The notes under the pieces were generated by a model that saw only the letters and a program-made list of their open reading frames with translations, did no database searches and had not been told where the DNA came from. The translations under genes were made by a program, and so were the position numbers. Shown piece after piece: positions 31,973 through 61,982 of a stretch of DNA of 64,000 nt (the stretch's first letter is position 1; the number at the start of each line of letters is the position of its first letter). Location of the stretch: positions 1 through 64,000 of the IMG/VR virus record IMGVR_UViG_3300028805_000089. One strand, 5' to 3'. The DNA comes from a virus. Lineage: Duplodnaviria; Caudoviricetes.

Positions 31973-31975
31973 TCC

Positions 31976-32056: not shown

Positions 32057-32131
32057 GCCAGCATAGTTCAGCGGCAGAACATCGGTTTTGTAAACAGGGT
32101 GTCGTGGGTTCAAATCCCTCTGCTGGCTCCA
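32057..32131 (+). tRNA. tRNA-Thr(TGT)
   Basis: GCCAGCA/TGCTGGC acceptor with CCA; loop TTTGTAA; one anticodon-stem mismatch. Confidence 0.7.
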
Positions 32132-35025: not shown

Positions 35026-35361
35026 TCAGTCCTCAAAATCCCCGTATACTTCCATCGTGCTGTCGGCGCTGGCGTTGACAACCTTCACGTAATTCACCCC
35101 GCCCATCGGGACCTTGTAAAGCCCCGCCACGCTGATGCTGTCGTCAACGCTGCCGTCCAGCAGATTGATAGGGGAGTCGAACCACACCCCGTTAACGGGA
35201 TCATTCCCGGTATGTACCTTCACGGTCAGGCTTGGTATCCCGTCGCTGAGTACCGTCAGGTATAGCGCCCTCGCGCCCATCTCGTTCTTCACGGGGCCGC
35301 CGTCCGTCAGGCCGCTTCCCTTCTTAATAAATTCCGCGCTCTGTACTCTCACCCGGATCAC
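35026..35361 (-). CDS. Hypothetical late protein
   Basis: GAGGAG RBS; coupled to the holin stop. Confidence 0.65.
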   Translation of the reverse strand: MIRVRVQSAEFIKKGSGLTDGGPVKNEMGARALYLTVLSDGIPSLTVKVHTGNDPVNGVWFDSPINLLDGSVDDSISVAGLYKVPMGGVNYVKVVNASADSTMEVYGDFED

Positions 35362-35627
35362 TCCTCTTCTTTCTTCTCTTCCTCTTCACCGTCATTGCCG
35401 ACATAAACATCGCCCTCATAGAAATCCCCGCCCGCGCTGGCGGCGTCGGTGAGTCCTTCCCCGATGATGTACGCGACAACCTACGCTCCGGCCATGATAA
35501 TGCCGCTGATCTGCGTCACGGTCTGCTCGTCCATGTGCAGGGCCAGCAGCAGCCCGCTCACAAATCCCACGATTGCCATCCAGAATTTCCTGCTCGTCAG
35601 TTTGCTTACCCAGTCGATGTTCCTCAT
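35358..35627 (-). CDS. Holin-like membrane protein, 89 aa, one in-frame TAG (35481-35483)
   Basis: MRNIDWVSKLTSRKFWMAIVGF..GIIMAGA*VVAYIIGEGLTDAA..acidic tail; ends TGA; missing from the ORF track because of the TAG. Confidence 0.8.
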
Positions 35628-35745
35628 AAATCTTCGCTCCTCTCATTTTCGTCCCGGCGCGCCGGGTCAGTTACTTCCAAACAGGGGACGGTTCTCTGTT
35701 CCCTTCAAACCGTCTCCATCTCAACTCTCAACTCTTCCCCGTTAC

Positions 35746-35994
35746 TTAACGCCTCCATGGATAATCGTAGCTCATTGCCCGTTCGCTGTCCCCGACGCCC
35801 TCCGTGGTCGGATCGATCAGGACGCCCAGCAAGCCGAGCAGCGTCAGCACATGGCTGATGATGTCCATCACGGTGCTTTCCTCAACCGGCACCACGATGC
35901 CAAGGGATTTACAGACATTGTATCCGAAGCCCACGATCAGGCTCAGGAAGGTCGCCAGCCAGACCTTGTTCCGAAAACGCACTTTCCAATTCAT
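35746..35994 (-). CDS. Phage holin (phi LC3-like)
   Basis: MNWKVRFRNKVWL..LGVLIDPTTEGVGDSERA. Confidence 0.88.
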   Translation of the reverse strand: MNWKVRFRNKVWLATFLSLIVGFGYNVCKSLGIVVPVEESTVMDIISHVLTLLGLLGVLIDPTTEGVGDSERAMSYDYPWRR

Positions 35995-35998
35995 ACTC

Positions 35999-36223
35999 TT
36001 ACCCCACTTTCTTCGACAGTTCTTCTACGTCTTTGACGACGTCGTCCACGCGCTGCTCCAGTTTGATGGTCCGCTCCACCACCTGGTTGTGTTTTTCCAC
36101 CTTGATCTCCAACTGTTCCAATCGGTACGCTATCAGGGCCGCCTGTTTACGGTTACTAATAAACGTCCCCAGGAACGCGCCAAGCGCGGTAATCACCGCC
36201 ACCACGATCGTTGTCCAGTTCAT
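35999..36223 (-). CDS. Small membrane protein (holin/hemolysin-like)
   Basis: N-terminal TM helix then LIAYRLEQLEIKVEKHN. Confidence 0.75.
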   Translation of the reverse strand: MNWTTIVVAVITALGAFLGTFISNRKQAALIAYRLEQLEIKVEKHNQVVERTIKLEQRVDDVVKDVEELSKKVG

Positions 36224-36478
36224 AGGATCACCCCCTCAATTATTTGTATTTTGCTAAAATAACCGTACCTCTTATTTTAAATAACTGCCCATCTCTGAAA
36301 TAAGGAAGACCCCGTAAGCCTTCCCCTCAGGGGAAGGTGGCTGCGACCGCAGGGAGCAGACGGATGAGGTTCCCCGTCGTTCCCGTCCGTTTCCGTCCGT
36401 TCCTTCCCCGTTATCAAACAGGGGACGGTTCCTCGTGTTCTCTCCATAATCCCTTTTACCATGTTCACTTCAACGATC

Positions 36479-37378: not shown

Positions 37379-37381
37379 TGC

Positions 37382-39493
37382 TCAATACCTCCACTTCAGT
37401 TTGATGAATGCCCTCGCAGAAGCCGTTGCGTAAACCACCTTGCCGATGGCCGCGTCCGGGTCGTTCACTTTCGCCAGTTTGCAGTCCGCGTCCAGGCCGA
37501 TGTAATCCCCTATGGACAGCCCTGTCAGGCCGGCCCTGTCGGCCGCGATATACCCACGCGTCTGGATGTATGTGTCGCTGGCGGTCTGGTACGCGACGAC
37601 GCCGTACACTTTGTCCAGGGCTGTGGCTTTCTGCCAGTCCTGACCGCTCCGCAGGTTGTAATACTCCACGGCGGTCCCTACGGGCAGGGAGTTTTTGACC
37701 GCGCACTGCACGTCCGCGGTGTTATAGTAAGTCGCCGGCGACGTGTTGTACATCGGCGAACTCCCGCCGCAGCCCATGATCACGATATGCGGATACGTCT
37801 GATCGGCGCCAGGGTCTTTCGATGCCGACAGTATCGTAAAATCGCAGTTGTCGAACACATACACCACCACGTCGTCCGGGTCGGTCGTCTCCAGGTAGTC
37901 GTACATGCTGAAGTTGTACCCCTTGCAGTTGTACAGGTACACCCTCGGAAGGTTGGGCAGTGAAGGCCGCGTGTGCAGCCCGCCGAGATGGCCGAAATCA
38001 ACATTATAAAATTCATATTCCATACCACACTGGGCGATCCCGGCCCCGTATGTGTGCGGAGGATTGTAGGACATCGCGCCATACGCCCGGAGGACGATGT
38101 TTTTCATGGTCCTGTGCAAAACTTTCCCGATCGGGCAGTGGAAATCGTCGTGGATGCAGTACCGGATGTTCTCCGCGAGGATCGTCAGGTTTTCGATCCC
38201 GCCTCCGCCCTGGAGGTTCAGAGTGCTGATTGCGTTCCGTACATCACTCGAATAATCGGTGGTGTTCAGAGACGCTGTCAGGATGATCTCCTCCGGCTTG
38301 CCCATGCCGATCAGGCTCATTCCGTTGAGCAGTTTCGGCCCCACGAATCCGGTCTGGTTGAAATACGCTGCCTGGATCTCCTCCTCGGTATAGTCTTCCA
38401 GCACGTCATACGTCCCCGGATAGATCTCGATGCGGTACGGGTTCAGCACATCGTTGGCGCTTGTCCCGATCGCGTCCAGCGCGTCTCTAAGATTTGTGTA
38501 ATCCCCTGTGCCGTCTTTTTTGATGCTGACCACGGTCGGCCTGATCGGCACATCCCCGAGAACGCTGACCTCGAACGTGACGGTCCGACCGTTGTTGATC
38601 GCCCCCGCGGCATATACCGCGCTAATGCTTTCCGCGTCCTCGGTCAGGGTGTATTCGTACCACGAACAGTCGCACCTTGCGGAAACAATGGTTGTATTGT
38701 CGTGCTTGTATGTGATGTTTACCCCGTCTTCCCACGGCATTGCCCCGCGCTCAATGTGGAGCACCAGCCGATCTCCCGCTTTGAAATTTCGCGTGATGGT
38801 CAGCGTCAGCCCCTGGCCGCTCGCGGCGGTCCCGCGCACGGAATAAGTCACGTACTTCCTGCCGTCAAATACCTTGGTCACGATCCCGCCGTCGGCGAAA
38901 CGCCCGAGCACATGCCCGTATGGATCCACGATGTCCAAGTCGGTCCCCGTGGCCTCGCTGTCCTTGATCAGGTCGGCGCTGTTAAAATTTTTCGTGACAA
39001 TATGCCCGTTTTCTAACCTGACAATCACGTTCCCGGAAGGGTCTGTAATGTCCAGGTCTGCCGTCCCGTCGCTATCAAGCACGCTTGGAATCTTGTTATT
39101 TATTTTATACGTTGCATCATCAGTTGCGCTCTTTAAGTCACTAACCTCCCCGCCCACGTTCACTTGCGTCCAATGGCCGGATGTCCATGCTTCGCCCGAC
39201 GCGATTGCCGTCGTACATCTGTAAAGCAGCCCGTTGTGGATAACGTAATCGCCGACGGCATATGATGCGCTGGCAGAGTACGTCGGCGCAAAGTTCGCCA
39301 CGGTATCCGTAAAATCCTGCGGAAGCGACTCCGTCAAACTCTGCGCCCTGTCGGCTGCTTCAGCCGCGATCTGTGCGTTCTCCTATGCGTTCCCGATTGC
39401 TTCAGCCCACTCGGCCTTGCTCCCGGTGTACCCTTCCTGCACCGCAATGGCATACGCGGATATCGGGCCGATTACTTTCGTCTGTGTTGCCAT
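37382..39493 (-). CDS. Receptor-binding/tailspike protein A (703 aa), one in-frame TAG (39383); pectinesterase-like C-terminal region
   Basis: N-terminus MATQTKVIGPISAYAIAV shared with the 41153 gene; CBM-like YAVGDYVIHNGLLYRC; KKDGTGDYTNLRDAL. Confidence 0.75.
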
Positions 39494-39497
39494 CTCT

Positions 39498-41063
39498 TCA
39501 TCCCTCCATGTTTGCCATACGCGCATCCGCGATGGCGCGGTCCATCTGTTCCAGCGTCCTGTGCAGTTCAGCGCTTACGTCTTCAAGCCTGCGAAGGATT
39601 TCTTCCATGCCGCCCTTGATATCATCGTCGCCGCCGCTTTCGCCCTTCTTCCCTTCGTCCCCGCCGATGCCAAGTTCCTTCTCGATCTCGTTCCACGTAA
39701 GCTAACCCACGATTCCGTCGGCCTTCAGCCCGTGATTCACCTGGAACTTCTTCACGGCCAAATCCGTCTGCGTCCCGAATATCCCGTCCGGTCTCCCGCA
39801 GTCATATCCAAGCTGGTTCAGCCACTCCTGCAGTTGCTTCACCGCGTCGCCGTTGCTGCCCTTCTTTACCGTTACCATCAGGATCACCTTTCCCGCTTCC
39901 GCGATTTCTTCCGGCGTGTAAAGTCCTTTCGGTATCCCGTAGTTCGTCCAGGATGTGTCGCTCAAGCTTCCGTACTTAACCCCGCCGTTCCCGGTGCAAT
40001 GGATGATAACGCCGTCCCCGATGTGGATTCCCGTGTGCGAATAATTTTTGTTCGCGGAGTTGTACTTAAAAAGGCAGCACACCACATTCGGCATCCCGGC
40101 GGTCTTACCGCGCTGTTCCCAGTTTCTCGGCGTTTCATACTGCGTCGTGCATCCCTCGCCGTAAAGGTCAATGCCAGCGCCATGCTCCATCACATAATGC
40201 GTAAACCCCCGGCAGTCGTAGCATTGATGCCCCTGCCACTTACACCCGTCGCAGGTCTTCTGCTTGTTCTACAGCACCGGGCATTCCCCGTAGATTTTGC
40301 TCTTATACTCCGGGCGATAACCGGCGTATTTCTTCCGCGTCTCCGGGGTGCATTCCTGCCCCCACGCGCCAAAGACATACGGGTCGCCGATTTTGCTTTC
40401 AGCCAGTTCTACCACATCCCGCGCCTTATCGTTTAACAACACTTTATCCGTCACATGCACCGCCTCCCTCAGTACCAGTCCTCCGTAGTTGTCCATCACG
40501 GCACATCCCGGATAATAAAACGCCAGAATGTCCCTGTACCAAATCCCGTGCTTCGCGGCCACCCGCGCACCGCGCTGGCTCATGCCCACGCCGTGTCCGT
40601 ACTTTTTGTGTCCGTCCTCCCTGTCCCATGGGTCTTCCTGCTCGATCAGGTAGGGATAATCCCCGCCCCACCGTTCCTTGGACGAAGTCGTTCTCCCGCC
40701 GTTGTTCGCGCTGAAGTGGGCGACGGCAATGCCGCCGCCGTACATCAGCACCTCGCCTTTGGTATCCATCGCGGCACGGTACGATATGGGATATTTCCCA
40801 TAATCACACCGCGCCGCCCGGTATGCCATCGTGGTCTATGCGTCGTCGCTCACCGCCAGCCCCCGCAGCGCCCCTCTGGATATCGCCAGACTCCGCGCCG
40901 CAACGGCCTGCGCTTTGCACGCTTCCATGCCGGACTCCCCGATTTCGGACGCGGTCACCGCCGCGACGTATTCCTCAAAGTCCACGTTTACCGTATCCCC
41001 GATATTCACCCCGAAGAATTCCGCGTTCTCCCTTTGCGTTATTCTTACCGTTATCTCAGGCAT
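39498..41063 (-). CDS. Modular endolysin (521 aa), three in-frame TAGs (40836, 40269, 39702): SpoIID-like, NlpC/P60-like and PG_binding_1 domains
   Basis: ACKAQAVAARS, HGVGMSQRGA, YDCRGF, HTGIH, DGIFG..VKKFQ..GLKADGIVG*LTW; three track ORFs join in one frame and end at TGA. Confidence 0.85.
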
Positions 41064-41152
41064 TGTCCGTCTCCTTATGCATTTAATAGGGGAGAAGCAG
41101 AAGTGACCCTGCCCCTCCCCCTTGGCAGGGAGTTGGTTACTTAAAGCCTCCG

Positions 41153-43216
41153 TCAATTGTTCAACGCCCTCGGCGAGTTGTATCTCGCAAACATCCACTG
41201 CCGCCCCTGGCTGATCAATCTCCTGATCTCATGTGTCCAGTATTCCGCCACGACCAGATTGCCGCCCGTGCCAAAGTGAAGTCCGTCATACGGATGGAGC
41301 CATGTGTGGTTTGTTGGCGTCGCACCGTCATGCGAAAATTCGCCCGTGAATTCAGCGACGCCCACCACGTTCATCGGATAAAGGGCGGCGATCTGGTGGA
41401 TCACGTTATTCGTAACGTCCACATCGCCGTTTGATGCCCACACCGTGCCAAGATAGATCCGCGCCGTGTTTTTCTGTGAAATAATTTTTGAGATGATCTT
41501 GCAATAATATCCGGTTTCGGTTTCGGCGAAATCATTATAATTGGTGTACGGAGTGACATCGGTTGATAGCGTATCGGTTAGTCCGTTGTTCGTCCCAAGC
41601 CATATAATAAAATCCTTATACTGGCTGTATGTATAGGAATCGCTATACTCGGTATACCAGTTTGATGCGGAGTACCCGCTTTTCCCGGCGTTCGTTACGG
41701 TTGCCCCCGTGAATTTTGCCAGAAATTGCGGATACGATACGTCCGTATGCGGAGGATTGCCGTTGCCGTGCCAATAGGATTCAGTCAGGCTGTCACCAAT
41801 GCACAGAACGTTTTGAAGATAATATTCGTATCTCGGTTCAAGCCGGTCAATGATTGTTCCTGAGGTAACGGAATTGTCAAGGTATGCGCTCTTAACGGTA
41901 TACCGATATGACGCAGGGAGATAGATTTTTGTGGATGACGTTGTCATCTCGCTGGCCCGGAAATATTTCGCGCCGCTCGGCACGATGATCGTGGTCAGGC
42001 AGTCAAGCTGTTTGTTCCACTGGTTCGTTGCTCCGGATATATAGGTCCGGTCGGCATCATAAAACGCGATCCCGGCGGCATCCCTATACCCGCACTGCAG
42101 TTTCATCGTGTCTGTATGGATCGGCAGGAAATCCGTATAGTTGAAATTGACGCTGTCCGTAAGTTCGCCTGTGCTCGCAACAACGTATTTGCCGGCTTTC
42201 CACAGCACGGGCATCTCAAACCACCTGTCGTATTTTTCATCCGTGCTTCCGTTCATTGCGGCGTATACGTCCTCGGCGGCAGTATAATACACCGTTACCA
42301 CGCCAAGCGTCTTTGAGCATGATATCACGATGTATTCGGCGTTAGCAGGGATCGTCGGCACGATCAGGTATGCATCCGTATATGTCCCGGTAAAACCGTC
42401 AAGATAACCCAAATCAGCATCATAAAAAGAAACGCCCGCAGAGTTGTTGTTAAGTTTGGTACGGAACCCGATCAGGTTTTTCACAGGCAGGAATGTCGTT
42501 GTGTAATAGGATGTATTGGTTGCCGCCACCCCGGTGGAATAATCCCTGTACCTGTTCTGTATCAGTGTCGGCGTATATGCCACTGCCGTGTCGATATTAT
42601 CAATCGCGCTCTTTAAGTCATCAACATCCCCCGCCAGAGCATCGGTCACCGTCTTGATTCCTGCGCTCGTTACGGGGTTGCTGCTGCCTGCGGTCGGCGT
42701 GGAGTCAAACGTCAGTTTGTCCTGTTTCCCCGTTTCCAAATCGCTGATTTGTGTACTGTGAAAGTCAACGGTCATCTGGTCGGCAGCCTGGATATTGTTT
42801 CTGGCAGCGCTCCTTTGGGCCGAAGTCAGGTTCTGGGTTTCATGCCACACGGCCTTTGAAAGGTCCTCGCCGACGCTCACCTGTACCCAATGCGCGGGTG
42901 TCCACGCTTCTGCCGTCGTGATTTTAGTAGTACACCTGTAAAGCGATCCGTAGTGGATTACATAAGCGCCGACCGCGTATGTCGAGCTGGTGGAATATGT
43001 CGGTGCAAAGTTTGCAATCGTATCCGTAAAATCATCAGGCAGCGACTCTGTCAGGTTCTACACCCTGTCTGCCGCAGCTTCTGCTGCCGCCGCGTTCGCC
43101 TACGCGTTGCCAATTTCCGCAGCCCATTCGGACTTACTGCCGGTGTATCCTTCCTGCACCGCAATGGCATACGCTGAAATAGGTCCGATCACTTTTGTCT
43201 GTGTCGCCATTTTCAT
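41153..43216 (-). CDS. Receptor-binding protein B with an SGNH/GDSL hydrolase domain, two in-frame TAGs (43100, 43058)
   Basis: Shared N-terminus with RBP A; CIGDSLT, GKSG, LGTNN, DGLH blocks. Confidence 0.8.
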
Positions 43217-43266
43217 TCCTCCTCATTTCATCAAACAGGGGACGGTTCTCCGTTCCCCGTCCTCCG

Positions 43267-44592
43267 TTACTCCATCCCCTCGCTCCCCGCCGTCTCCTCT
43301 TCGTCCTCGTACACCGGCGGCCACGTTTCCGTCGTCACGTCCGGGAAGTCGTTAACACTCGTCGCGTTGATTGTCATCGTTCCATCCTGTGCCAGACTTC
43401 TTTCAAACCCGCTCACCAGATGCCTCTCCAGCGGATATCCTTCCTTGTCCGGTCTCCGCAGCGTAATCAGTTGGTTCTCCTGTATATGGAAAATCTGCCC
43501 GCATTCGATGCTCACGTTTTTCTTCAGCGTCGTATACCGCTTCAGCCTGAACCGCGCCAGACTCTCGCACACTTCGCGGCTGTAATATCCGCTCTGCGCT
43601 TCCCTTATCAGCTTCCTGCCAAGAATATATATGTTCGTGTCGCTCTTCGGGTCGGTATTGATTGCCCTGCCGCCAATCACGCCGTGGTCGCTCAGACTTT
43701 GCCCTTCGATGATAACGTCATTGTACATTTCCCCGTTAAGGATTGTATATGTCGTGCCAAGGAACCGGCTGTTGTCCGGCGATATCTCGTATACCACCGG
43801 CTTTTCGCTGTCGTTCACGTCATCCTGACTCGGCTCCACGCAGAGCCGCCCGGTGCAGTCATACCCGATGCACCCGGCCAGCATCGTGTTCAGTTCCAGC
43901 ATCACGTCGGCATAGGTCTGTCCGGCGCTTTCAGCCCGGTATGTGTAAGGCGCGTCCGTCAGATACCCGACCGACCCGTCCTCAAGTTCCTGCGTCTTCC
44001 CATTGTAATAATCGGTAAACATCGGAGGTACGGAGTCAATCTTCAACCAGCTTTCAGGAGGGATGTTCTGTCCGTACCCCCGTGGGAGATTTAGCAGCCC
44101 CTGCATCGCCTGAAAAATCGGCGTTCCCACCGTCACCTCATAAATGCCGTCCAGATTGCCAAACAATGTCCCGTCAAGGTAACTCCACTTGTCGTACAGG
44201 TCCCACGTCACCGTGTTGCCCTACGGATCGACCGCCTCCTGCGGGTCCTTAATGTAAAACACGCCCTGCGGCAAATAGAATTCTTCGCCGTTTGGCAGCA
44301 CCAGCCCCTCACTCAACCGCACCTGCGTCCCGAACCAGATCTTGTTCACTTCATAACTGAACGCACCGTCGATGTTCGCCAGCGTCACGCTTGCGTTTCT
44401 CCTCTGCCCGTTGTTAAAGTTAACGGTCAGCGTCCCGTCCTGAATAAACGCCCTGCTCTTTGGGTTGTCCGGGTTGTTGTCAACCACAAAATTTACCGTT
44501 CCGTCGGGCCACAAAAACTCCAGTTTCGCCAGCTTCTGAAACGGCCCCTTCAGCGCCTCCAGATACAAATTCCACTTTTCGCTCTGTGTCAC
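43267..44592 (-). CDS. Tail/baseplate hub-like protein, one in-frame TAG (44221)
   Basis: Two track ORFs join (AVDP*GNTVTWDLYDKW); LPQGVFYI motif; position after the tail genes. Confidence 0.7.
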
Positions 44593-44903
44593 TCTTTCAC
44601 CCCCAGACACCCACATGATTATTTTTCAAACGAGTTTTTCTGCCATCGTAATTTTTTTCAACCGACTTCTAAACATTGCCGCAGGAGCGTCTCCATCGCC
44701 TTCTCCGTTTGGGGGCCTGGAGCGCCCGGAAAACAGTCCGGTGGACTGTTTTCAGCGAAAGGCGGGCGGTAGCCCCGGACGGTGTCAGTGCCATCGTAAG
44801 ACGCTTAGGTCACGGGACACCCCGGCCTACTTCGTCGGCCACCCCGTGGCAAGGGATGAGGTTCCCCGTCCATCCGTCAACTTCACTCTCCACTCTTCAC
44901 TCT

Positions 44904-45107: not shown

Positions 45108-45119
45108 ATCCAGCCTCCG

Positions 45120-46781
45120 TCAAATATTATACGTCACGGTCAGCGTGCATCCCGCCCGCATGAATGTAAAGAATTCGGTCGGGCTGTTCATGCCCACGGC
45201 AAATCCTTTAATCGTCCCGTTCTGAAGCAGATAAAACTTTTCGGGCGGGAATTCAAACGTCCCGGTTTCTCCGGGCGCGATATACTGCATCGGCGCTCCG
45301 ACGGACAAATACCAGTCTCCGCTCTGCTATGAATAACTCCACGGGTCGCAGGATCCGGCGTAATTATGTATCGTCGCCGCCGTCAGGTTGTGATAATACG
45401 GCCTGATAACAACGCCGCTGCTGCTCCCGCCGCTGCTTGTCCTTTTGATGCTCACCGTCGCCTTGGTTATCGTGGCCCCGGCCAGCGTCTGCGCAATCGT
45501 ATCCGCGTCGTCAAACAGCCAAAGACCGGCCATATATTTTTTGCTCCCGCTGTTGTATCCCATTCTTGGATTGTTCGTTCCGTCGCCGCGCCATCCGATG
45601 GCCTTTCCAAGGTACGCCTCCGTGCCGGTCTTGGAACTCTCGGTAAAGTATCCGCTGCTGCTTGTCCATGTGCTGGTCACCTCGGTCACGGCGGGCGGTG
45701 CTTCTCCGCCGCTCGTCACCTTGGTCACCGTACCGGAGCATGTGAACGGATAACCGTTGCTCTCATACCCCGTCCCGGCGGAATCTGTCCCGGCGGGAAT
45801 CGTTCCCTTCGCGTTCACATATCCGCCGTCGGGGCTGATGACTACGCCGTTCACAAGGTTCGCAAGCGTCGTTTCGTCCGTGCTGAACGCGCCGCCAGCG
45901 CAGTCAACGATATCGGCATGCGCATGTTCCACATAGATCGCCGCGCCCGTCCGGTCGATCAGGCATCCGTCGATAAAGGCGTAGCTGCCGTCCCTCACAT
46001 AAACGCCGTATGCCTGCCCGTCGTCCCCGGCCTCGCGTTCTACGCCGTGGATTTCAATGCCGCTCACCTTCACGAATCCGTTTCCGCGCAGGTCAACCAC
46101 CGCGTCCTCCAGCACGCCCATGAACTGCGTCGTGTCCGTCCCGTCGGTATCGCCCGTGATGTTTACCCTGTTGTTCCCGGATATCACCCAGTCGCCCTTC
46201 ACCACGGCAGCCTTGTCAAGGTTCAGCGTCAGCGTCCCGTTCCCGCTGAACCCGGAGATATCCACGTCCTCGACGTATGTCCCTTCAGGTACGGCGATGA
46301 CCACATCCCCGGTCAGGTGCTTTCCAAGCCCGTCGATCACATCCTGTATTTTGCCGTTTACCGTCGCGGTCTTCGCACCCTGTATATTGATAATGTCGCC
46401 GCCGATATGCCCGTCAACCGAGAGGTTGTCAAGCACAAGGCTTACGCCGTTTTCGTCGGCTGAAATAAAAGTCTTTTTCCAGCTTCCGCTGTTCACAGCG
46501 CAGGCGTTCCCAAGCCCGTAAGCCCATTCCACCCACACGCTTTCACCCGGCTGCGCGTTGTAAAGGTCCGGCACAAACGGCACGTCGAACGGCTCTCCGA
46601 ACGCCTCCCGCACGGTCAGGACCACGTTTCCGTTTTCGTCTTCATGCGCTCCCTGTACAACGTACATTTTTTTCCTGCGCACAAAGTCCGTGGAATATTC
46701 CTTCAGGATATCCGTCACAACGTTTTCGATGCCGTTCAGCATCATTTTGTTTTCGACGATTCTGTTTCTTCCGTTATCCAT
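45120..46781 (-). CDS. Minor tail protein with a beta-helix-like region, one in-frame TAG (45327)
   Basis: Track ORFs 45327-46781 and 45120-45308 are in frame (SYS*QSGDW). Confidence 0.75.
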
Positions 46782-48961: not shown

Positions 48962-51900
48962 TTACCTGTTTCTGTACAGCCTGTGCCTGCCCAGAATGTC
49001 CGTCATCGTTTTCGCGTCGCTTCCGTCAATCGTGATGCCGTCCACGATAATCGTCGTGCTTTGGTCCACGCTTGAATAGCTTCCGTACTTGCCCTGCTCC
49101 GGCGAATACTTGCCGATGTCGCCCACCGTAATGGCGTCCCACGTCGGGGCCAGCGCGTACAGCGCGTCAAGCAGTTTCACGGTCCCTTCCATCTGCGCAA
49201 CGTAATTCTCTCCGGCACCCATCATTTTCTGAAGCGCGTCCGTCAGGCTTTCCAGCGGCACCTCCACAGCGTCCACCAGTCTCTGGTAATACTTGTCGAG
49301 GTCGTCGTAGGTCTGCTGCAGCTTGTCCAGCGCATCCTGCAATGGGTCGATGCTCTCTCCGTACTCGTACTCAATTTTCGTCCTCTCATGCTCAAGGTCT
49401 TCCTGCTTGCGTTCGATTACTTCCTCCTGATCCTCAAGCGCTTCGATTTGTTCCTTGTACTGGTCTTCGATGGCATCCCGTTCCCGCTTCAGCGTCGTGA
49501 TTTCAAAGTCGGCCAGCGCGTCAGCATACGCCTCCTCGGCCTCCTTAATCGCCTTCGCGTCGGCCATCCATTCCCATTGCCCGGTTTCTTCATTAAAGTA
49601 CCTTATCGTCCTCTGGTGCCTTGCGTCCTCCAGCGCCTGCCGTTTTTCCTCAAGGTCGATGTTTTCCTTGTTGATGTCCCGCTCTTTTTCAAGCCGCTCT
49701 ATTTCCTTGTTCAGCGGTTTGATGGCGTCGTCCCTCGCCCTTTCAAGCAGCGTCACTTCATACTGCAGCATCGACAGGCTGTAGTCCAAATCCTCCAGTT
49801 CCTCTTCGATGGGCTTGAGCAATTCATCCCTTGCCCGTTCGATGGCCGTGATATCATCCTGATAACTATCGATCTGGTACTGGATTTTCTTCAGCCCATA
49901 ATCGATATACTTCCGAATGATATCCCAGAAATCTTCCTGTTCTCCTTCGTCGCTGCTCTGGGTTTGGGAACCCTGGCTCTGTTCCCATTCCTCGCGTTCG
50001 CTCTTTTTTTCTTCTTCGTCCTTCTTTTTATCCGGAGGAGGGGTCACGGTCAACTTCGTGGAATCTCCGAACATTTTGCCGAAGAATCCTCCCACAAGGT
50101 CCATGAAGTTATTCCCGCCGTTTGTTCCGTCGGCATAAGCGGGGATGCTCATCTTTCCGCCAAGCAGCGACGCCGTTTCCTTCGCGGTATAGATCGTCGC
50201 GCCTTTCGGGATCTTTGCGATAGTCGGGAATCCGTTTGCGTAAATCTACGCCAGCCCATTCCCGGCAACCAACTCCGGCCCTTCCTCGTTGATCAGGGCA
50301 TATCCGCCTTTGAAGTCGGAAGCGCCGTTTGCCGCCTTTGGTAGGTTGAACAAGTCTTTGAGTCCTTCAAGAACGCCGCCTGACGGCGATTTTGTATTCG
50401 TCGTTACGGTTATCGTCTTGTTCTTGATTCCCTCCAGCGTGGTTTTCAGGCGGTTCAGTTTGCTCTGGCTGTCAGAAACGTTTGCGTTAACGCTGAAACT
50501 GATTGTCCTTTCGATAAATTCCTGAAGTTCTTCAATGGACTCAAGTTCTGTATAAGCGTTTCCTTCAGCGTCAATGGTCAGCGTGGTATGTTTTCCGTTC
50601 CCTTGCGTATCGCCAAAGAATTCGTCGATGATTTGCGTCCCGTCGCCCTCAGTTACAATCTTGACCCTGTGAACGGTACCGGCAGCTTCATCGATTTCCG
50701 TAATAATGTCCATAACGGCGTCGCTGTCTTCCACCTGGAATTGCGCGGTGTATACCATCGTGCCGTCTTCAGTCATAAACGAATCTTCGCTGAGTTTGAT
50801 TCCGGCGACCGGAAGTTCAGCTGGATTTTGCCCAAGATTAGCCTGCACAACAGAGGAAGCTTCTTCTGCGGCACTCTTTGCAGAAGACTCATCGGCTGTC
50901 ACTTTCAGTTCTATCCCGGCATACATATCTTTAAGCGATCTGCCCTTCGTGGGATCAGGAGAACCGGTGTTCAGCGGACTTGAGGGATTTAATATCGGAC
51001 TTAAAGCAAATAGCGACCCGGTGAATGGGTCATCATCAAAAACGGCGCTCAAATGATAATGATAAGATTCGTCTGTAGTATTGATGCTGTCGGCAATCAG
51101 TTTTTGTGCCGCCGCGACGCCCGCCTCGACGCCGTCAGTTGTTGCTTCCAGATCATAAGTGCCAAACTCGCCGCTGTTTACCGCTCCCGTGCTGGTCACT
51201 ACATTTTTTTCGACTTTATCAAGGGCTTCGACGGCACCGTCATCATTTCCCGTAACATTGATAACAGCCTTGTTGCTTGCGGCGTTGGCTTTTTCTTCTG
51301 CGGTTACGACGACCTGGTCGGCCTTATTATTAAATTTATCGAGATCGCCGTCATAATGGATCATCCGTACCGTTTGCGTCGGCCCGTTTGCGGTTTCTTC
51401 AAGTATAACGATCATAGCGTTCAGCATATCGCCGTTCGCGCTGTATTCAATCTCCCTTACACCTAAAACAGAATTGGCGTTTGCGTCCGTGATCGAAAGA
51501 TTTGCCACCTGACCGTTTGTCTTGTAATAAATATCGCGAATGCGTCCGGCTTGATTGGCAATAAATTCCACGTCCTGAATATTATCGATCTGTCCGTCCG
51601 TCGTGAATGTAACATGTCTGTCTTTTGTCAATGTGTCCATGTTCCATTCAAACACGTCCGCGTCTCTTAACGTGCCGTCCGTATAAAAGCCGACTTTCCG
51701 TTGCGTTATATTCGCCAGCGTTGTATCTATGACGTCGATATTGTTGACTTTGCCGGTAGAGTCAAACTGTATTGTTCTGGTCTCGGCGGCGGCTTCGGCA
51801 CCGGCAAGTATTTTGTCGATTGTCATTTGCGCTGTGCCGTCCTGATCGACTTCAAAACTGATTTTGTATGTCGTGCCGTCGTTTTCAAATATGTTTAATC

Positions 51901-54900
51901 CATTCGGCGTCTATGCGGCTGTCGCCATTCCGCTGTTGTTGATAAGCTTTCTGAGATACTCCCAATCCGCGTCGTTTCCGGATGCGTCTTTGATTGCCGT
52001 GATTTTACCTTCGACCATTTCAAGGGAACCGCCTGCGGCCTCGGCGGCCGCCTGCATTCTCGCAAGCATTTTGTCGGCTCCCTCGGCATTCCCGTTCAGA
52101 CGCATCTGGTCAAGATACGCGTTCATGGACGCGACCTGCTCGGTCACGTTTTCATATCCGCTTACGTCAACGGGCAGTCCAAGCGCTTCCGGTGTACTTT
52201 CGGCGGCGATCTGCGCGGCGTTTGAGAGTTCTTCCCGGACGGTCTGCGCGTCTTCCGCAGCATGCTCCGTGGCGTCTTCCATTTTTTCGGTGTAATCGGC
52301 GTAATTTTGCCATCCGCCCTCAACGTCAGGAACACCTTGTATCTCGACTTCGCCGATTTCGTTCAGCAGATAAAGCCATTCCTTCATCTGCATCCACTCG
52401 GATGAACCCATTCCGGAATTCTCGGCGAACGCAAGCAGCTTGTCATAATCTATTGTCAGCAGACCTTCTTCTGTTTCAGCCGCAAACCCGGCTGCCTTGC
52501 CCATTTCCTTCAGTTGTGCCGTGAAATTTTTTACGTCCGATTCAAGGTCGCCGTATACGCCCAGGGCCTTGATGGCATCCCATGTCTGATCGATACTGAG
52601 ATGAGTCGCCTCGGCAAGCCCCTGCAAATCAGAAACGGTAAACTCTATTTGCCCGTTTACTTCTTTGTAGGACGCGACGACTTTGTCATTCAGCTTGATC
52701 TCGCCCGTCTTCTTGTCGGCGATTTTTGCAAGCACGGCAAGGAATCCCTCGCCGTAAGTCTTTTCCGCGTCGCCGTACATTGTTTTGTACGGTCCGTTTG
52801 CCATGAACGCGTTGACGCCCTTATAACCTTTTTCGCGGTACAGCGTATCGAAATCCGTCCCGCTCCCGGCCATCAAATATCGCGCCGCAGCCATTGCTTT
52901 CTGGCTGTTCACGCGTCCCGCCTCGATCTCCTCGGCGTATGTCGCGTATGCGCTCTGGTAATCCGCGAATCCTTTATTTTCCGCGTCGCGTTCCATTGCG
53001 GCGTCAAAGGCCGTCTTGGCTTTTGTCGCGGCGCTTAATGCGGCTGTAAGTTTGTTTACGCTTGCGGCTGCTTTATCGGTACTATTTGCCATTCCGGCGG
53101 CACCATCGAATTCGGTAATCCTTAACCATTCTTTATATACTTGCGGATACCTCTACGCAAATAATTCGAGAAACGCTGTTCTTATATATTTGGCATAACC
53201 CGGATAATTGTTTTCGTCAATTGTATTGAATAGCGTTTCCATTTCTCTTGCATATTCGCGCAGCGTATCTATATCTACATCTCCACCGGAATTAATAATG
53301 CCTTGTAAATTCTCCAGTTTAACCCAGTTTGGATTATCTATCTACATTAGGGAATTTGCCGCCGAATCAACATAGGCGTTTAATGCTGTTGACGCTCTTT
53401 CGTATGCGTCACTCGCGTCATCTAAATACTCAACGATTCGTGAGTAGCTTGGAACATCTGTCGCCTTAATATGATTGTCTAAGGCGTATTGCTCTATTTT
53501 AGCTTTTAAAAGCTTTACAGATTCGTACTGCTCATAAAGTTCTTTTGCATCAAGTCTCCAATAATCAGTTAACCACGCGGTATAAGATGGTTGATTCGTT
53601 CCCTATGGTGTAATAATATTGGCAATTTCTTCTCTGAAACCATCGAAAAGCTCTTTTAATTCATCTGTGTCGCCAAAGAAAAAACGATATGTCTTTGGCG
53701 TAAGTGGAACAGACATAACAGAAGTGCGGTTAAATTCATCAAGAGCGCCCTTGGCCGCCGCTTCGGCTGCCTTTATTTGCTCTTTTGTCATTTGACGAAT
53801 TTCGTCTCCCGCAGCTATCGCTTGATCTCTCGTTAGGCCAAGTGCGTCCGCCAATGCATAAAGTGCGGTGGTATACTCTTCCGTTCCTTCTTTGGCGGTT
53901 AAAAAATTGGCGTAAAGAGTCATTGTTTCAGTACTGTTTTGATTTGCTTTTTGTCCTGCTGCTACGGCGGCTTTTGCCTGTTTTTCAACATTCGCATTGT
54001 AATCCTGCAAAAGTTTATTTGCAACGCTTATTGCAACACCAGCAGCGGTCACAGCAAGTCCAAACCCTCGAATGTTTCCTGTCATGCCGGTGACCCAATT
54101 TGTATCTCTTCCGGTAAATCCAGCCCATAACGTTGCAATTCTTTGTGCTTTCAATGCCGTTACCAATCCAAGTACGATGGTTAGTGCATTTGCTAAATTG
54201 CCGACAGCTTGAACTGTGCCGTTTAACAAATCGAGAACGCCCTTGATCATTCCGGTAGAAACCGTATTATTGACCAGCGCGACCCAGCTTGCCTTCAATC
54301 GTTCCGTCTTGACGGTGATGGAATCCAAAGAGTTTTGTACCTCCCGGTCGATACTCCCGCTGGCACCTTCGTAGGTCTTCAGCATGCTCTCGTACATGTC
54401 CCAGTTCTTGATGAGTACCATCAACTGGTTTGTGCGCAGCTTGCCGCCGATATCGCTGACCATGCTGAACAGTTTCGCCTCGGTCAGGATGCCCTGCTGA
54501 TAGGATTTTGCCAACGCCCCGATGGCCTCCATCGGGTCGATCAGCGTTCCGGTCGCTTCGGCGGCGCGTACCACTTCGGGCGCGTACAGTTCCAGCACCT
54601 GGCGAAGTCCTTCTATTTCGCCTGCCGTCCATTTCGCGCCGTCCTCGATCTCCGTGGTCGTGTCGCCCATGATGTTCAGGAAAATTGCGCGGAGGGCGGT
54701 CGCCGCTTCGGTGCCGCTCCTCTGCGTAACGGCGGTAACGGTGCCAAGGGCGGCGGTCAGTTCGTTGATGCCTACGTGCGCGGTGGAAGCGATGGTCGCC
54801 AGTTTACCGATACCGGCGCTGATCTCTGCCACGTTCGTGGCGTATTCGTTGCCGATCTGGTTCGCGCCGTCCATCGCGGCGGTCAGGGCCTGGATGTTGC

Positions 54901-55423
54901 CGTTCAGCCCGTAAGCCTTGTCGATGGCCAGGATGTACTGGTTCGCAACGTCTGCGCTCACGTCGCCTGCCCTTTGCAGTTTAACGCTCAGTTCCGCAAG
55001 CCCCTCTGCCTGGTCCTTGTAACCTGCGCGTGTAAAGTCGGCCACGCCTGAAAGGTACTTGGACGCAGCTACGCCGTATGCCTGCGCCACCTTCATAGCG
55101 TTCTGCGTCATTCCGGCAAGTTCTTCGTTTGTCTTTCCGGTCACACGGCGTACCACGACCAGTTCGTCGTCGATGGCCTTGATTTCCTGATACGCGCTTT
55201 TCAGATTATTTGTAAACGTCTTCCACAATTTCGTGCCAAGGCTGTTCAGCATGTTTTCGTACAGTCTCGTGGTATAACCCACCATCTGGTTAGCCGCTTG
55301 CCCCATTCGTCCGCCCAGATTGATATTCGCCTGCTGCTGCAGCTGATTTAACTGCTGCTGAAGCCCGGCGACGACCGCCGACATATTGTCTACTGCGTTA
55401 ATATTTACGGTTACGGTTGCCAT
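48962..55423 (-). CDS. Tape measure protein (2153 aa), five in-frame TAGs (53603, 53342, 53153, 51911, 50246)
   Basis: TP901-type core (IDDELVVVRRVTG..GNEYAT..LRAIF); EEGPELV..*..IPKGATIY; four track ORFs in one frame, gaps read manually and free of TAA/TGA. Confidence 0.9.
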
Positions 55424-55554
55424 TTATTTCCCTCCCCGGATAATTCCTGAACTCACCTATTCAAAAATCGCCCTTGGAAGGGCTTTTCGTCTGCCGTCAC
55501 AAAATCCCTCGAACAGGGGACGGTTCTGTGTTTGCCGTTTATTTTTCCTGCACG

Positions 55555-56049: not shown

Positions 56050-56203
56050 CCCGCATCCTCCTTTCTCCGTGGTACAATATTCAATCCCCGCGTCGCGGAA
56101 CCTGAATGCTGTATCACAAAACACAGGGGACGGTTCTTTGTGTTTGCAACGGGGGAGGGCTTTTACGCCCTCCCCCTCGTATCGTTTGTGCTATTCTTTT
56201 TTA

Positions 56204-57274
56204 TCAGGCGGTAACGACCACGTTGGCCACAACACTCAGGTCGCCGTTTTCCACGGTGATCTCCGTGTTACCGGCGGCCGCGCCGGTCAGCACGCCCTTG
56301 TCGGAAACGGTCGCCTTGGAAGTGTCGGTCACGGTGTAGGTCAGGTCGCTGTAGTCCGGCTGCACCAGGCTGTCGTCGGCCATGACGTACTTCACGGGGA
56401 CCTGCACGGACTGCGAGGCGGCAACGGTCACGACGCCGCCGACGATGGCCATGCCCTTCACGTCCACCAGAGCGCCGCCCACGGGCATATCCACCATGTA
56501 AGCAAGGGCAAAGGACGCTTCGTCCACGCAGATGCCCTCGGCGGCAGCCTCTTCATAAGGCAGAGCGGAACCGGACAGGGTGTCAACATCAGCGTCGGTC
56601 TGGTCGCCCTTCACAGGCGCTTCGCCCTTGAACTGCATCCTCGGAATCCAGATGTAGCGGTCGCCCCACTTGGTGCCCTTGGTGCTGCCCTGGCCCTGAG
56701 TGGTGTACAGCGGCATACGGATCATGCAGATTTCGATGTTGGGTTCAAACACGCTGTCAACGCGCAGCTGATGGGCACTGGCGGCGCGGACGAAGTACCG
56801 CACGCAGTAGGTCTCGCCGACCACGGGAACGAAGTCCTACACGGCCTTGGTAGTGGGATCGATTTCGAAAGCGACGCCGCTCTTGTCCACGAAACCGTAA
56901 ATCTTGTCGGTTCCGTAGGGAGCCACGGGGGTCTGACTCACGATCAGCGCGGTCGCGCCGGAAGCGACGGTAATGGTCTCCAGTACGGGGATGATTCCGT
57001 TGTAGCTGAGTTCGCCGCCGACGGACAAGGCACGGCTCTCCAGGGTGGAGGTCGCGGCGGTGATTTCCAGTTCCAGCTTGGCGCTGTCAGGCAGGTTCAA
57101 CAGGACGGGGTTCCGCAGGGAGCCGTTGATCTCGCCCATGTTGGTGCTGGTTGTCAGACTGTTGGTCTGGATTTTGTTGGAATAGAAATCCAGGTTGAAA
57201 GTGGACGGGTTGAAAAGCCAAACGTCCATAGTGCCTTTCGCATAAATGGGAGTACTGTTGGTTGCGTAAGCCAT
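56204..57274 (-). CDS. Major tail protein paralog 1 with an Ig-like C-terminus, one in-frame TAG (56837)
   Basis: Track ORFs join at KAV*DFVPVVGETY; collinear with paralog 2. Confidence 0.75.
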
Positions 57275-57291
57275 AATCTTACATCTCCTCT

Positions 57292-58383
57292 TTAATCATT
57301 TGTAACATAAACAACAAGCGGCGCGAAATACGTTTCACCGTTCACGGTAATTCGCGCATCAACGTGTCCCATACCGGGACCTACGGCCATGAATATGCCG
57401 CTTTTTTCAAGCTGTCTTCCGGACGTCACAACAGTAGTCGGCCCGATATCGTACCTAAACAAACTGTAATCCGGTTGGGCCAGCGTTCCGTCCTTCATTA
57501 CATATTTAAGCGGAACGGTTGCAGACTGGCCGACTTTCATTTCCATATATCCGCCAACCATTACGATGCCTTCAAAATCGGCCCACGGTCCGGCTGCAGG
57601 CATGTCTACCATATACGCCAGCGCGAAGGACGCTTCGTCCACGCATACACCTTCGGCAGCCGCTTCCTCATAGGGAAGGGCGCTTCCGGACAGCGTGTCC
57701 ACATCGGCGTCGGTCTGGTCGCCTTTCACGGGCGCTTCACCCTTGAACTGCATCCGGGGAATCCAGATATACCGGTCTCCCCATTTCGTACCCTGTGTGC
57801 TTCCCTGTCCCTGGGTCGTATACAGCGGCATCCTTATCATGCATATCTCAATATTCGGCTCAAACACCGAATCGATACGCAATTGATGTGCGCTTGCGGC
57901 CTTCACAAAGTACCGCACACAATAAGTTTCACCGGCAGTCGCGGCGAAGTTTTTCACCTTCCGTGTGTCCGCGTCGATCTCGTAGGCGATGCCGCTCTTG
58001 TCCACAAATCCGTACACCGTGTCCGTGCCATAAGGCGCGACAGGGGTCTGACTTACGGTCAAATCAGCGCCGGACGCCGTAACGGTTTCCAGCACGGGAA
58101 TAATCCCGTTATACGTCAGTTCTCCGCCCACGCTCAATGCGCGGCTCTCAAGCGTCGATGTGGCTGCGGTAATCTCCAGTTCCAGTTTCGCGCTGTCCGG
58201 AAGGTTCAGCAGAACAGGGTTTCTCAGCTAACCGTTGATCTCTCCCATATTGGTCGAGGTCGTCAGGCTGTTCGTCTGCACCTTGTTGCTGTAAAAGTCA
58301 AGGTTGAACGTGGCCGGGTTAAACAGCCACACGTCCATCGTTCCCTTGGCATAAACAGGCGGGCTGTTTGTCGCGTAAGCCAT
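57292..58383 (-). CDS. Major tail protein paralog 2, one in-frame TAG (58228)
   Basis: MAYATNSPPVYAKGTMDVWLF..EING*LRNP; AAGGAG RBS. Confidence 0.75.
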
Positions 58384-58425
58384 GTTTATCTCCTTCTCTC
58401 ATAACACAGGGGACGGTTCTCTGTG

Positions 58426-59235: not shown

Positions 59236-59266
59236 CGTTTATTCCTTCCTGCTCTTTTCGCCTGCG

Positions 59267-59611
59267 TCAGGCACCCTGCTGGTTGTTAAGCAGCGCCTGC
59301 CGCGCAACGTCTTTGAGGAACGTGTCGTACTTCTCCTGCGCGGCGACCGCAGTCGCCAGCGCGTCCTCCACGTCCCCGTTCAAGTGCTGTCCCGTCATGG
59401 ACTTGGCCATGATGGTCGTCAGTTTACACGTCGCATACTGAAATTCCGTGTTCAGTTTCTCCGCCTTTTCGCGGGCCTCGCTGATGGCCTGCATCCGTTC
59501 GATAAAGCGCTCCGTGTTTTTTCTTTCTTTATTGCCCTGATATGTTATCCACGCCACGATTATCGTGCAAAGCGGAGCGAACGCAATCCCGAAAATCTCA
59601 AGGAAGGTCAC
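59267..59611 (-). CDS. Membrane-anchored coiled-coil protein
   Basis: N-terminal TM helix; GHLNGDVE-like motif seen in phage holin-adjacent proteins. Confidence 0.65.
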   Translation of the reverse strand: MTFLEIFGIAFAPLCTIIVAWITYQGNKERKNTERFIERMQAISEAREKAEKLNTEFQYATCKLTTIMAKSMTGQHLNGDVEDALATAVAAQEKYDTFLKDVARQALLNNQQGA

Positions 59612-59796
59612 GTTCCGTCACCCCCCTTCCTCTCAAGATATTTCTCGCAGCTTTTATATCCAACGGTGATTTCATATGCCCTTCTGCTCGGACAGTATTG
59701 CTGTTTCAAACATATCTGCCCGTCCGCCTTGCATTGGAATATCCCGTTTACCTTGTCCATACGCACCGCATACGGGCATTGCCACGAAGTTCCCAT
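59608..59796 (-). CDS. Small Cys-rich protein
   Basis: Four Cys; coupled stop/start. Confidence 0.6.
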   Translation of the reverse strand: MGTSWQCPYAVRMDKVNGIFQCKADGQICLKQQYCPSRRAYEITVGYKSCEKYLERKGGDGT

Positions 59797-59811
59797 CGGT
59801 CATCCCTTCTC

Positions 59812-61170
59812 TCAATACCCGTACACGTTCACCGTCACGGTCTTTTCCATTCCGTGCGATGCAGCGCTTACGGTAATTTCACCCGGCAGGAATCCGGTAA
59901 CCGTTATCCGGTTCCCGTCCTGCTCCCATGACGCCGCGTTCATGTCCCATGTCCTCACGGTATATTCAACGGCTTCTTCGGTCTTCACGCCGCCGACAAA
60001 CCACGCGGCCTCCAGAGTAACACTCTGGTATTGTGCGCATTTCTCGGCCTTCTGCAGCCATTCAAGCCCTTCGATGATTTCCCCGTCCACCGTGATTGCG
60101 GCCTCGCAGGTTATCTTTTCGTTCTCCTCAAGTGTAGCGCGGATGACGCATTCGCCCTCGCCGACGGTCGTAATAACACCGTCTCCGTTTACCGTCGCCA
60201 CGTTCTCGTCCGTGCTTTCATACCGCCATGTCAGCGGATATTCTCCCAGCCGTTCCACTCCTCCGTCAGCGGTCGTTCCGTAGGTCACGCCGTCAATGAT
60301 GGATAGTATCTGGCCGTTTCGCACGGTCTCGATCCCGGTCTGATAAGTTTTGCCGGGAATCGCTTTTGCGGGAACGCCCGTAAACGAGGCGTGCATGTCA
60401 AAACTTTTTCCGTCGGCCACCCTGTTCTCCAGGTCGTCGCTTTCGATGGGTTCCTGGCTCTGCAAGTCGAAATACAGGATATGCGTGGAATCCGCGTTCC
60501 CTGTCTCGCTCTGCAAAAAGTCGATCAGGCCCCTCACCATATAAGCCATCGTCCCAAGGATCATCCGGCGGTTCGTCAGCAGGTCCTTCGTATCCTCGTT
60601 CAGCTGCATCACGCATTTCTGGTAAAGGTTCGGGGATACGATGTAGTCCATATATTCGTTTGCGCTGGCCTGGCTCTGGTTCTTCGCCCAGTAAAACGGC
60701 TCTTCCTTGATGTTGCCGTAAAAGTCCAGCCGCCGCCATGTCACGTTGCACCTTCTGCACACCGCAGTCGCCTGCGCTCCGTTCGCTTCGTCCGGGTTCT
60801 ACACGATGTATGTATCCCCGTTCACTTCGATCTTCGCGCCAAGCCCCACGGCGTTGATCTTTGAACTTTCAAACTTTATCTTTTTCCAGTCCTCAATGAT
60901 ATTGGTGGTCGTGCCGTGCCTTACCATGACCTACATACGAATCCGCGTCCTGAACCATTTATAAAAATCGTCCTCGTCGATACCCTGGACCCGCGCCATG
61001 TACATATCCTACGCGTATTTCAGATTCCTGTTGTTGTAATCCGATGTGTTCCGCGTGAACCCGTACTACCTCTGCAGCCCTTCGTTTTCGGAAGGGGATT
61101 TCACCCCGGCGCGTTTTCTGTACGGCACCATGCTCTTCGCGTTGCCTATCCTTTTCTCTATCCCTTCCAC
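59812..61170 (-). CDS. Structural protein with a C-terminal Ig-like domain, four in-frame TAGs (61066, 61009, 60931, 60799)
   Basis: AAGGAGGAG RBS and GTG 61170; frame open to TGA 59812 apart from the TAGs; STDENVATVNGDG Big_2 motif. Confidence 0.75.
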
Positions 61171-61283
61171 GCCGTCTCCTCCTTCCTTCTTTTTTAAACT
61201 CCGCTGTCATTATCGCGTTTCATTCAGGTTCCCCGCGCCCAAACTCTCGGACCATTCCAAAACTCCACTCTTCACTCTTAAAT

Positions 61284-61982
61284 TCAAACCGGAGGTTTAA
61301 ATTTCTTCCCGCTCGGCAGCGTCTCCATTGCCGCCAGCCCCTGCTCAAAGCTGACCAACGCGCTGTTCAGTTGCCCGTAAATCGTCTTCAGCCTTTCCGT
61401 TCCCTTGGCGATCCAGTTGCTCTCGTTGCCCACGTCAAAGCTGTCGTCCTTTATCTTCGGCGTCCTCGGGAGAAAGTCGTTGTTGAACCTCCGCTCCCAT
61501 ACGTACTGTACGCACAGTCCCAGAATGTTCTTCATTTCGTCCGTCAGGTCGTTCTCAAAATACCCGTCGGTATAGAAATCGAACTGCACGCTCCTGCCGC
61601 CCTCCACTACCTGGTTCACGGTTACGCTCCCGGTCTCCGGGTCGTATGTGATATCAAGCGGCACATACACCGGCGTACCAAGGTCGTCTTCTTCGATCAC
61701 CCCGGCGCTGCATATTTCAAACCCCGTGATTCCCGTCTCGATCACGTCGCCCTAATCCAGCATCGTGGTCGTTTCGATTTCCGTATCCTCCCAGTCCGGG
61801 TCCGTGTGGGCAAGCCATGTTTTCGCCTCCGGTGGCCGGTTGAACATCGGTATTCCGTTCTTCATGTACAGCGCCATCTTCCTGAAGAATCCGGCGGGGT
61901 TCTCGTCCATCTCGTCCTGAAGACGCACGTCTTCTTGCTGCACCATAAAATAGTCGCAGATGATCTCCGTATATGCTGTCAT
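61284..61982 (-). CDS. Head-tail connector-like protein, one in-frame TAG (61752)
   Basis: Track ORFs join at TTMLD*GDVIETG; AAGGGGGG RBS. Confidence 0.65.

Follow-up and report, generated by a model that had tools for sequence, protein, structure and literature searches.

The window analyzed here is the first 64,000 bases of an 88,717-bp virus record that consists of one contig (IMGVR_UViG_3300028805_000089; G+C content 52.7%), such that window coordinates are also contig coordinates, and it contains a late operon in which many genes carry in-frame TAG codons. The 88.7-kb phage looks like a temperate siphophage of the ruminant gut, and gut metagenomes of 11 studies, sheep and bovine samples among them, contained near-identical DNA. 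Its genes are arranged in two blocks, one on the plus strand (approximately 500-34,700) and one on the minus strand, running from 87,100 down to 35,000. The plus-strand block encodes two tyrosine integrases, a CI-like repressor, HNH and TnpB-like genes, and YqaJ/RecT recombination genes, as well as a DnaB_2-like protein, a helicase, two DNA methylases, ThyX, SSB, and three tRNAs. The minus-strand block opens with small genes, a PAPS-reductase/cysteine-desulfurase pair, and two tRNAs, and continues with packaging, portal, capsid, tail-tube, tape-measure, tail, and lysis genes. The late operon was recognized from PHROG and Pfam matches, which included the tape measure, tail proteins, holins, and a SpoIID/NlpC-P60/PG_binding_1 lysin. 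Pfam matches to YonD_N, YomW, YomU_Tube, and YomN, precomputed on the orthologous proteins of relatives and not on this phage's own, suggest that the virion module resembles that of SPbeta.

Relatives (loci with L numbers) were gathered via capsid, tail, and small packaging proteins, and those with a standard code had 55-83% protein identity. A blastn search of the tape measure against a phage collection returned one weak match only, and no related loci were recovered from IMG/VR via the 553-aa tail protein or from genome contigs via the capsid protein alone. An alignment-based scan of genome contigs found five contigs from metagenome-assembled genomes (MAGs), the bin names of which disagree (Clostridiales, Akkermansia, Staphylococcaceae).

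The late genes with in-frame TAGs, together with the gene at the window edge and those located past the window, are as follows.

35358..35627, minus strand: holin-like gene, 89 aa (phrog_297 holin); TAG at 35481 (codon 49), which is Ser (AGC) in L026 and L027.
37382..39526, minus strand: tail or fiber protein, 714 aa (Pfam CBM_5_12); TAG at 39383, common to L024, L025, and L026.
39498..41198, minus strand: lysin, 566 aa (Pfam SpoIID, NlpC/P60, PG_binding_1); TAGs at 40836, 40269, and 39702 (codons 121, 310, and 499), with codon 310 being TCG (Ser) in L026 and codon 499 Ala or Thr in relatives.
41153..43216, minus strand: GDSL-lipase/CBM virion protein, 687 aa; TAGs at 43100 and 43058, with codon 53 being CAG (Gln) in L025 and L026.
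43267..44616, minus strand: tail protein, 449 aa (phrog_1887); TAG at 44221, Thr or Asn in relatives.
45120..46781, minus strand: tail protein, 553 aa; TAG at 45327 (codon 485).
46774..48570, minus strand: tail protein, 598 aa; TAGs at 48532, 48298, and 48016, with codon 91 being Ser in L024 and L026.
48962..55423, minus strand: tape measure, 2153 aa (phrog_4211 and phrog_28); TAGs at 53603, 53342, 53153, 51911, and 50246, with codon 1726 being TCA (Ser) in L026.
56204..57274, minus strand: tail-tube paralog 1, 356 aa; TAG at 56837; the orthologs in relatives match Pfam YomU_Tube.
57292..58383, minus strand: tail-tube paralog 2, 363 aa; TAG at 58228 (codon 52).
59812..61170, minus strand: Big_2 virion protein (Pfam), 452 aa; TAGs at 61066, 61009, 60931, and 60799, all four common to L019; the residues of relatives at these positions are, respectively, Gln; Thr, Ser, His, or Asp; Ser; and Ala or Ser.
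61284..61982, minus strand: virion protein, 232 aa, with an ATG and ribosome-binding site at 61982; TAG at 61752 (codon 77 from that ATG).
63432..64166, minus strand: gene at the window edge without TAG; the late operon continues past base 64000.
Contig 66143-67705, past the window: one credible sense TAG.
Contig 70759-72570, minus strand, past the window: packaging protein, 603 aa; two TAGs (codons 60 and 224).
Contig 74325-74807, minus strand, past the window and upstream of the suppressor tRNA described below: HAD_SAK_2 gene; one TAG.
Contig 75451-75870, minus strand, past the window and likewise upstream of that tRNA: DUF6275 gene; one TAG.

Each of the 24 plus-strand CTA triplets reported by the initial annotation proved to be an in-frame TAG, distributed over 12 minus-strand genes, the frames of which are bounded by TAA or TGA alone and contain no interruption by TAA, TGA, or a frameshift. 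The proteins were found to be continuous across these positions, as had been proposed: in the lysin, the SpoIID and PG_binding_1 domains span two TAGs (codons 121 and 499), and tblastn alignments to relatives cross the TAGs. The predicted 2153-aa tape-measure frame with its five TAGs was recovered in full, and its residues 1-1081 align, across three of them, to the 2660-aa tape measure of L027. Full-length homologs of the 553-aa tail protein (548-580 aa) cover 99-100% of the read-through product, and the version in recoded relatives is shortened to 484 aa by gene calling under code 11. The same type of calling splits the L019 counterpart of the 232-aa virion gene into 76 + 153 aa; in this phage, that gene most likely starts at the ATG at 61982 and not at 62186. 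The two tail-tube genes form a tandem (56204-58383), and their products are 80% identical over 322 residues, with C-terminal Ig-like ends that differ. Late genes had been described as ending in TAA or TGA, and this holds for all 31 genes of the late block. In a coding-density check, called genes translate 60% of the genome if stopped at the first TAG and 86% with TAG read through.

The sequencing errors that the initial annotation had allowed for do not account for these codons. Assemblies of independent samples (L019, L024, L025, L026, and L046) share many of these TAG positions, and in these relatives every in-frame stop in well-aligned late genes is TAG. A metatranscriptome contig spans 61009 and 61066 without a difference; the overlay of metatranscriptome and assembly sequences consists of contigs only, with 351 differences hidden, and supports the presence of TAG, not its uniformity. 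Because the same TAGs recur in independent assemblies from other samples, they are neither errors nor pseudogenes. This confirms TAG as a sense codon, one that is concentrated in the genes for virion and lysis proteins: credible sense TAGs number 27 in 12,053 late codons versus none in the 9377 codons of the plus-strand block (1-34800; Fisher p = 3e-7), in agreement with the initial annotation, which had noticed none in early genes. Two more occur among the 3684 codons of the small-gene block upstream of the suppressor tRNA. Within genes, TAG positions are skewed toward the 5′ end (19, 6, and 4 by thirds, p = 0.001). Candidate TAGs located upstream of true starts were discarded (codon 15 of 55555-56235, codon 6 of 73556-73906, codon 2 of 75024-75497, and codon 12 of 11318-12436), as were spurious antisense open reading frames (ORFs) at 18678-19013 and 28159-28641 on the minus strand.

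In the early block, TAG probably still functions as a stop, judging from two genes that probably end in it. One is a lysogeny-module ORF at 8218-8721; the other is the following.

13220..14374, plus strand: TnpB-like gene ending in TAG (HTH_OrfB_IS605, OrfB_IS605, Cas12f1-like_TNB).

The Cas12f1-like_TNB match ends at residue 378 of the 384-residue TnpB-like protein, and the TAG is codon 385, six codons after the domain. Two RAGATH-18 RNA matches lie behind the gene, at 14407-14467 (33 nt past the TAG) and 14787-14846. Together, the two TAG-ended early genes and the lack of early sense TAGs suggest that the genome is written for two cell states rather than for one uniformly new code. Orthologs in standard-code relatives stop with TAG in 8 of 125 cases.

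The window itself contains no suppressor tRNA, and the initial annotation had spoken of a suppressor being supplied, without naming its source. The phage itself encodes one at the head of the late operon, 10 kb past the window end.

Contig 74105-74192 (L001 10105-10192), minus strand: suppressor tRNA(CUA) of serine type, 88 nt (ARAGORN; Rfam tRNA model, 56 bits).

This tRNA(CUA) is class II, with a long paired variable arm (6-7 bp stem), acceptor and T stems of 7 and 5 bp, a 3-bp D stem with C11-G24, the acceptor pairs G1-C72, G2-C71, and A3-U70, and the discriminator G73. For isotype comparison, two Clostridia genomes yielded 17 class II tRNAs (10 Ser, 6 Leu, and 1 Tyr). The seven closest to tRNA(CUA) were all tRNA-Ser, headed by tRNA-Ser(UGA), the anticodon stem of which is near-identical, and G73 was present in all 10 Ser tRNAs versus A73 in all seven Leu and Tyr tRNAs. 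These features identify tRNA(CUA), at the level of sequence, as a derivative of tRNA-Ser(UGA). Seryl-tRNA synthetase (SerRS) recognizes the long variable arm, G73, and the acceptor stem, and ignores the anticodon. The CUA-anticodon tRNA-Ser species of Escherichia coli supD (serU) and of the T4 psu1+ mutant of the phage tRNA-Ser are charged by SerRS and insert serine at UAG. Since SerRS is blind to the anticodon, tRNA(CUA) should insert serine, as supD does. Recoded L046 retains the tRNA, the variable arm of which shows compensatory changes there, and standard-code relatives at 70-83% identity (L013, L016, L021, and L023) have no tRNA at the homologous place.

Exact-pattern searches of IMG/VR returned no close copy of this tRNA(CUA). 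A pattern scan of the same database exposed approximately 14 further contigs with a Ser-type tRNA(CUA), among them viral contigs of 4.6-110 kb with a serine-type D arm and G73 (L047, L054, L057, L059, L066, L068, L075, L078, L081, L082, L088, and L090). The scan also found a Leu-like tRNA(CUA) with A73 (L051) and many Gln-like ones of 90 nt that contain long insertions. When the other Ser-type tRNA(CUA) contigs were examined by coding density and longest frame, these crude tests gave no discrimination in G+C-rich DNA.

The comparison with relatives provided a second line of evidence on the residue. Standard-code relatives gave the residue opposite this phage's TAGs, recoded relatives gave the reverse comparison, and one residue was taken per site. 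At 36 independent TAG sites, the partner was Ser in 13, Gln in 5, Thr in 5, Ala in 4, and another residue in 9. Under a likelihood that uses substitution frequencies estimated from the same alignments, Ser was the best meaning of TAG, with Thr lower by 25.1 and Gln by 32.3 natural-log units, and it ranked top in 97.6% of bootstraps. Where the surroundings are most conserved, relatives uniformly have Ser, namely at codon 49 of the holin, codon 52 of the tube protein, and codons 60 and 224 of the packaging protein. At packaging codon 224, where this phage has TAG, L046 has TCG in a protein of 96.5% identity. The TAG in tail-tube paralog 2 corresponds to TCC (Ser) in paralog 1, inside the fully conserved motif MGEING-x-LRNP, and is Ser in five of five non-recoded relatives. 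We therefore consider it very probable, from the tRNA and the alignments, that TAG is read as serine via the phage tRNA-Ser(CUA).

Several observations weigh against this interpretation. Ser partners occur at 36% of TAG sites, whereas ordinary Ser codons have them at 64% in these alignments. Gln (CAG) is the partner at five sites, and at three of these it is this phage that has the TAG. The lower Ser percentage suggests that TAG occupies more tolerant sites, some of which derive from CAG. The tape measure needs five read-throughs in the face of release factor 1 (RF1), and the ORFs scanned contained no phage release factor 2 (RF2), RF1 inhibitor, or synthetase. Finally, two genes upstream of tRNA(CUA), at 74325-74807 and 75451-75870, carry credible sense TAGs, such that the boundary between early and late genes is not clean.

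Among the alternatives, ambiguous or other decoding is unlikely. Here, the phage tRNA would carry another residue through mischarging or modification, or several tRNAs would yield a mixture of Ser, Gln, and truncated products. The greater variability of TAG sites relative to true Ser sites is in line with this possibility, and competition from RF1 must yield some truncated product; however, the identity elements of tRNA(CUA) fit SerRS, no other class II isotype fits, and the most conserved sites are uniformly Ser. Code 15, the assignment made in the initial annotation, under which TAG would stand for glutamine, the meaning it has in crAss-like, Lak, Garnet, and Topaz phages, appears very unlikely. 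It is the reassignment published for gut phages, and it draws on the five Gln partners among the 36 sites, including codon 35 of the gene at 59812-61170, where Gln (CAG) is conserved in all relatives. Yet one transition converts CAG to TAG, and some Gln partners would thus occur whatever TAG means; Gln ranked top in 1.7% of bootstraps, and the sole tRNA(CUA) is of the long-arm serine type and not of the Gln type, which is class I with a short variable loop. The description of a temperate, recoded phage that accompanied the code 15 assignment stands apart from that assignment, given the two tyrosine integrases, the CI-like repressor, and the sense TAGs. We regard as highly improbable that the host reads TAG as sense or supplies the suppressor, with the phage mirroring the host code. 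In its favor, the MAG matches are only to loosely assigned Clostridia bins; against it, the early block avoids sense TAG completely and contains two genes that probably end in TAG, relatives at 70-83% identity use the standard code, and the phage carries its own decoder. Already refuted is a decayed prophage or assembly error, with TAGs as nonsense mutations or miscalls, for which the presence of the stops speaks and nothing more, against the occurrence of TAG only (28 or more times) with homology continuing past each, the same TAGs in contigs of other studies and in a metatranscriptome contig, and the matching suppressor tRNA.

Around the decoder, the order on the minus strand is the HAD_SAK_2 stop (74325), a promoter-like site, a hairpin, tRNA(CUA) (74192-74105), tRNA-Asn (73898-73825), and the packaging genes.

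Contig 74291-74263, minus strand: promoter-like TTGACT-17-TATAAT with an extended -10 TG, 11 of 12 consensus positions, by consensus match only.
Contig 74226-74196, minus strand: 11-bp GC-rich hairpin with a GAAA loop and a T-run (terminator-like), directly ahead of tRNA(CUA).

L046 has near-identical versions of the promoter, leader, hairpin, and tRNA, with indels in the spacer behind the tRNA. Late control in phage lambda involves the pR′ promoter, the tR′ terminator, and the Q antiterminator. The arrangement here recalls it, in that the late operon is headed by a site resembling a strong promoter and, approximately 60 nt on, a hairpin resembling an intrinsic terminator. Unlike in lambda, the first product behind the hairpin is a tRNA, and no Q-like antiterminator gene was recognized among the ORFs scanned, many of which are small and without annotation.

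In the mechanism that we propose, tRNA(CUA) would be the first gene of the late transcription unit. Before it builds up, late proteins would halt at TAGs, mostly in the first third of their genes, and the holin, lysin, tape measure, and tube proteins thus could not be finished early. Once the tRNA is made, host SerRS would charge it with serine, and UAG would be read as Ser against RF1 competition. The idea of a timing control, raised in the initial annotation, fits the genome layout. That antitermination at the hairpin gates the suppressor tRNA is a possibility that we hold to be doubtful. Similarly tentative is the scenario as a whole, in which a clade of ruminant-gut temperate siphophages would have a natural UAG = Ser code, for which there is no NCBI table, switched on by one regulated step: antitermination past a constitutive promoter and an intrinsic terminator might free the decoder together with the packaging, virion, and lysis genes that TAG keeps locked.

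Recoding of TAG in late genes is already known, and the new part is serine as its meaning, in so far as it was not found in the open-access papers searched; full-text searches of the open-access literature returned no report of a natural TAG = Ser phage. The supD and T4 psu1+ tRNAs are laboratory nonsense-suppressor mutants, whereas the gene described here is natural and fixed, and approximately 30 codons of essential phage genes depend on it. In the reports on stop-recoded gut phages (crAss-like, Lak, Agate, Jade, Garnet, and Topaz; bioRxiv 10.1101/2021.08.26.457843; PMC9523058), as here, sense TAG is enriched in structural and lysis genes, the phages encode a suppressor tRNA, lysogeny and early genes retain the standard code, the habitat is the gut, and recoded and standard-code lineages are closely related. 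The phage analyzed here differs from them in that both the tRNA and the alignments point to Ser, in lacking an RF2 gene among the ORFs scanned, in its apparently SPbeta-like virion module, and in its ruminant-gut habitat. For phages with a code differing from that of the host, those reports give only TAG = Gln and TGA = Trp, as stated by Borges et al. (bioRxiv 10.1101/2021.08.26.457843). For suppressor tRNAs (tRNA-Sup) associated with theta ribozymes in gut phages, the predicted isotypes are Gln (69%), Trp (19%), Ile (10%), and Tyr (1%), Ser being absent, and there, too, a phage tRNA(CUA) is taken as the driver of a code switch before lysis (PMC10879173). Unlike those tRNA-Sup genes, the tRNA(CUA) described here has no ribozyme family matched beside it in an Rfam scan.

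Published mechanistic reasoning rests on the glutaminyl- and tryptophanyl-tRNA synthetases, GlnRS and TrpRS, and a serine lineage would be a third route, one that needs no synthetase change because SerRS ignores the anticodon. For such phages, gene callers and pipelines that translate TAG as Q (code 15) would put a wrong residue at approximately 30 positions per genome. The coexistence of close standard-code relatives and several recoded ones makes the clade suited to studying how a code change starts, and a natural, efficient Ser-inserting UAG decoder may be of interest to genetic-code engineers.

Additional features were noted in the genome. A PDB sequence search with the 603-aa packaging protein gave no match; by its position, this protein is a putative large terminase. 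In several relatives, a GIY-YIG/NUMOD homing-endonuclease gene is located right after the capsid gene (L019 1329-2560, L023 11247-12421, and L046 19735-20751), and this phage has none there. The two tyrosine-recombinase genes lie on opposite strands at 5061-7786, both adjoining the CI-like repressor; one product is XerC/D-like (315 aa) and the other (369 aa) has an N-terminal zinc ribbon. The early-block tRNAs, tRNA-Ile(UAU) and two tRNA-Thr(UGU), cluster at 31901-32131 on the plus strand, and one tRNA-Thr(UGU), of 81 nt, has an unusual extra arm. The RecT gene (16179-17276, plus strand) is in two same-frame pieces, 16179-16514 matching Pfam RecT 1-61 and 16695-17276 matching 63-188, parted by a 180-bp insert with several TGA and TAA stops that may be a small intron or another insertion. 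Past the window, at contig 76370-78956 (L001 12370-14956) on the minus strand, a class V aminotransferase (cysteine-desulfurase-like, 413 aa) is located beside a PAPS-reductase-family protein (360 aa). This pair is conserved in relatives and resembles a DndA/DndC-like pair, and may represent a module for sulfur-based DNA or RNA modification.

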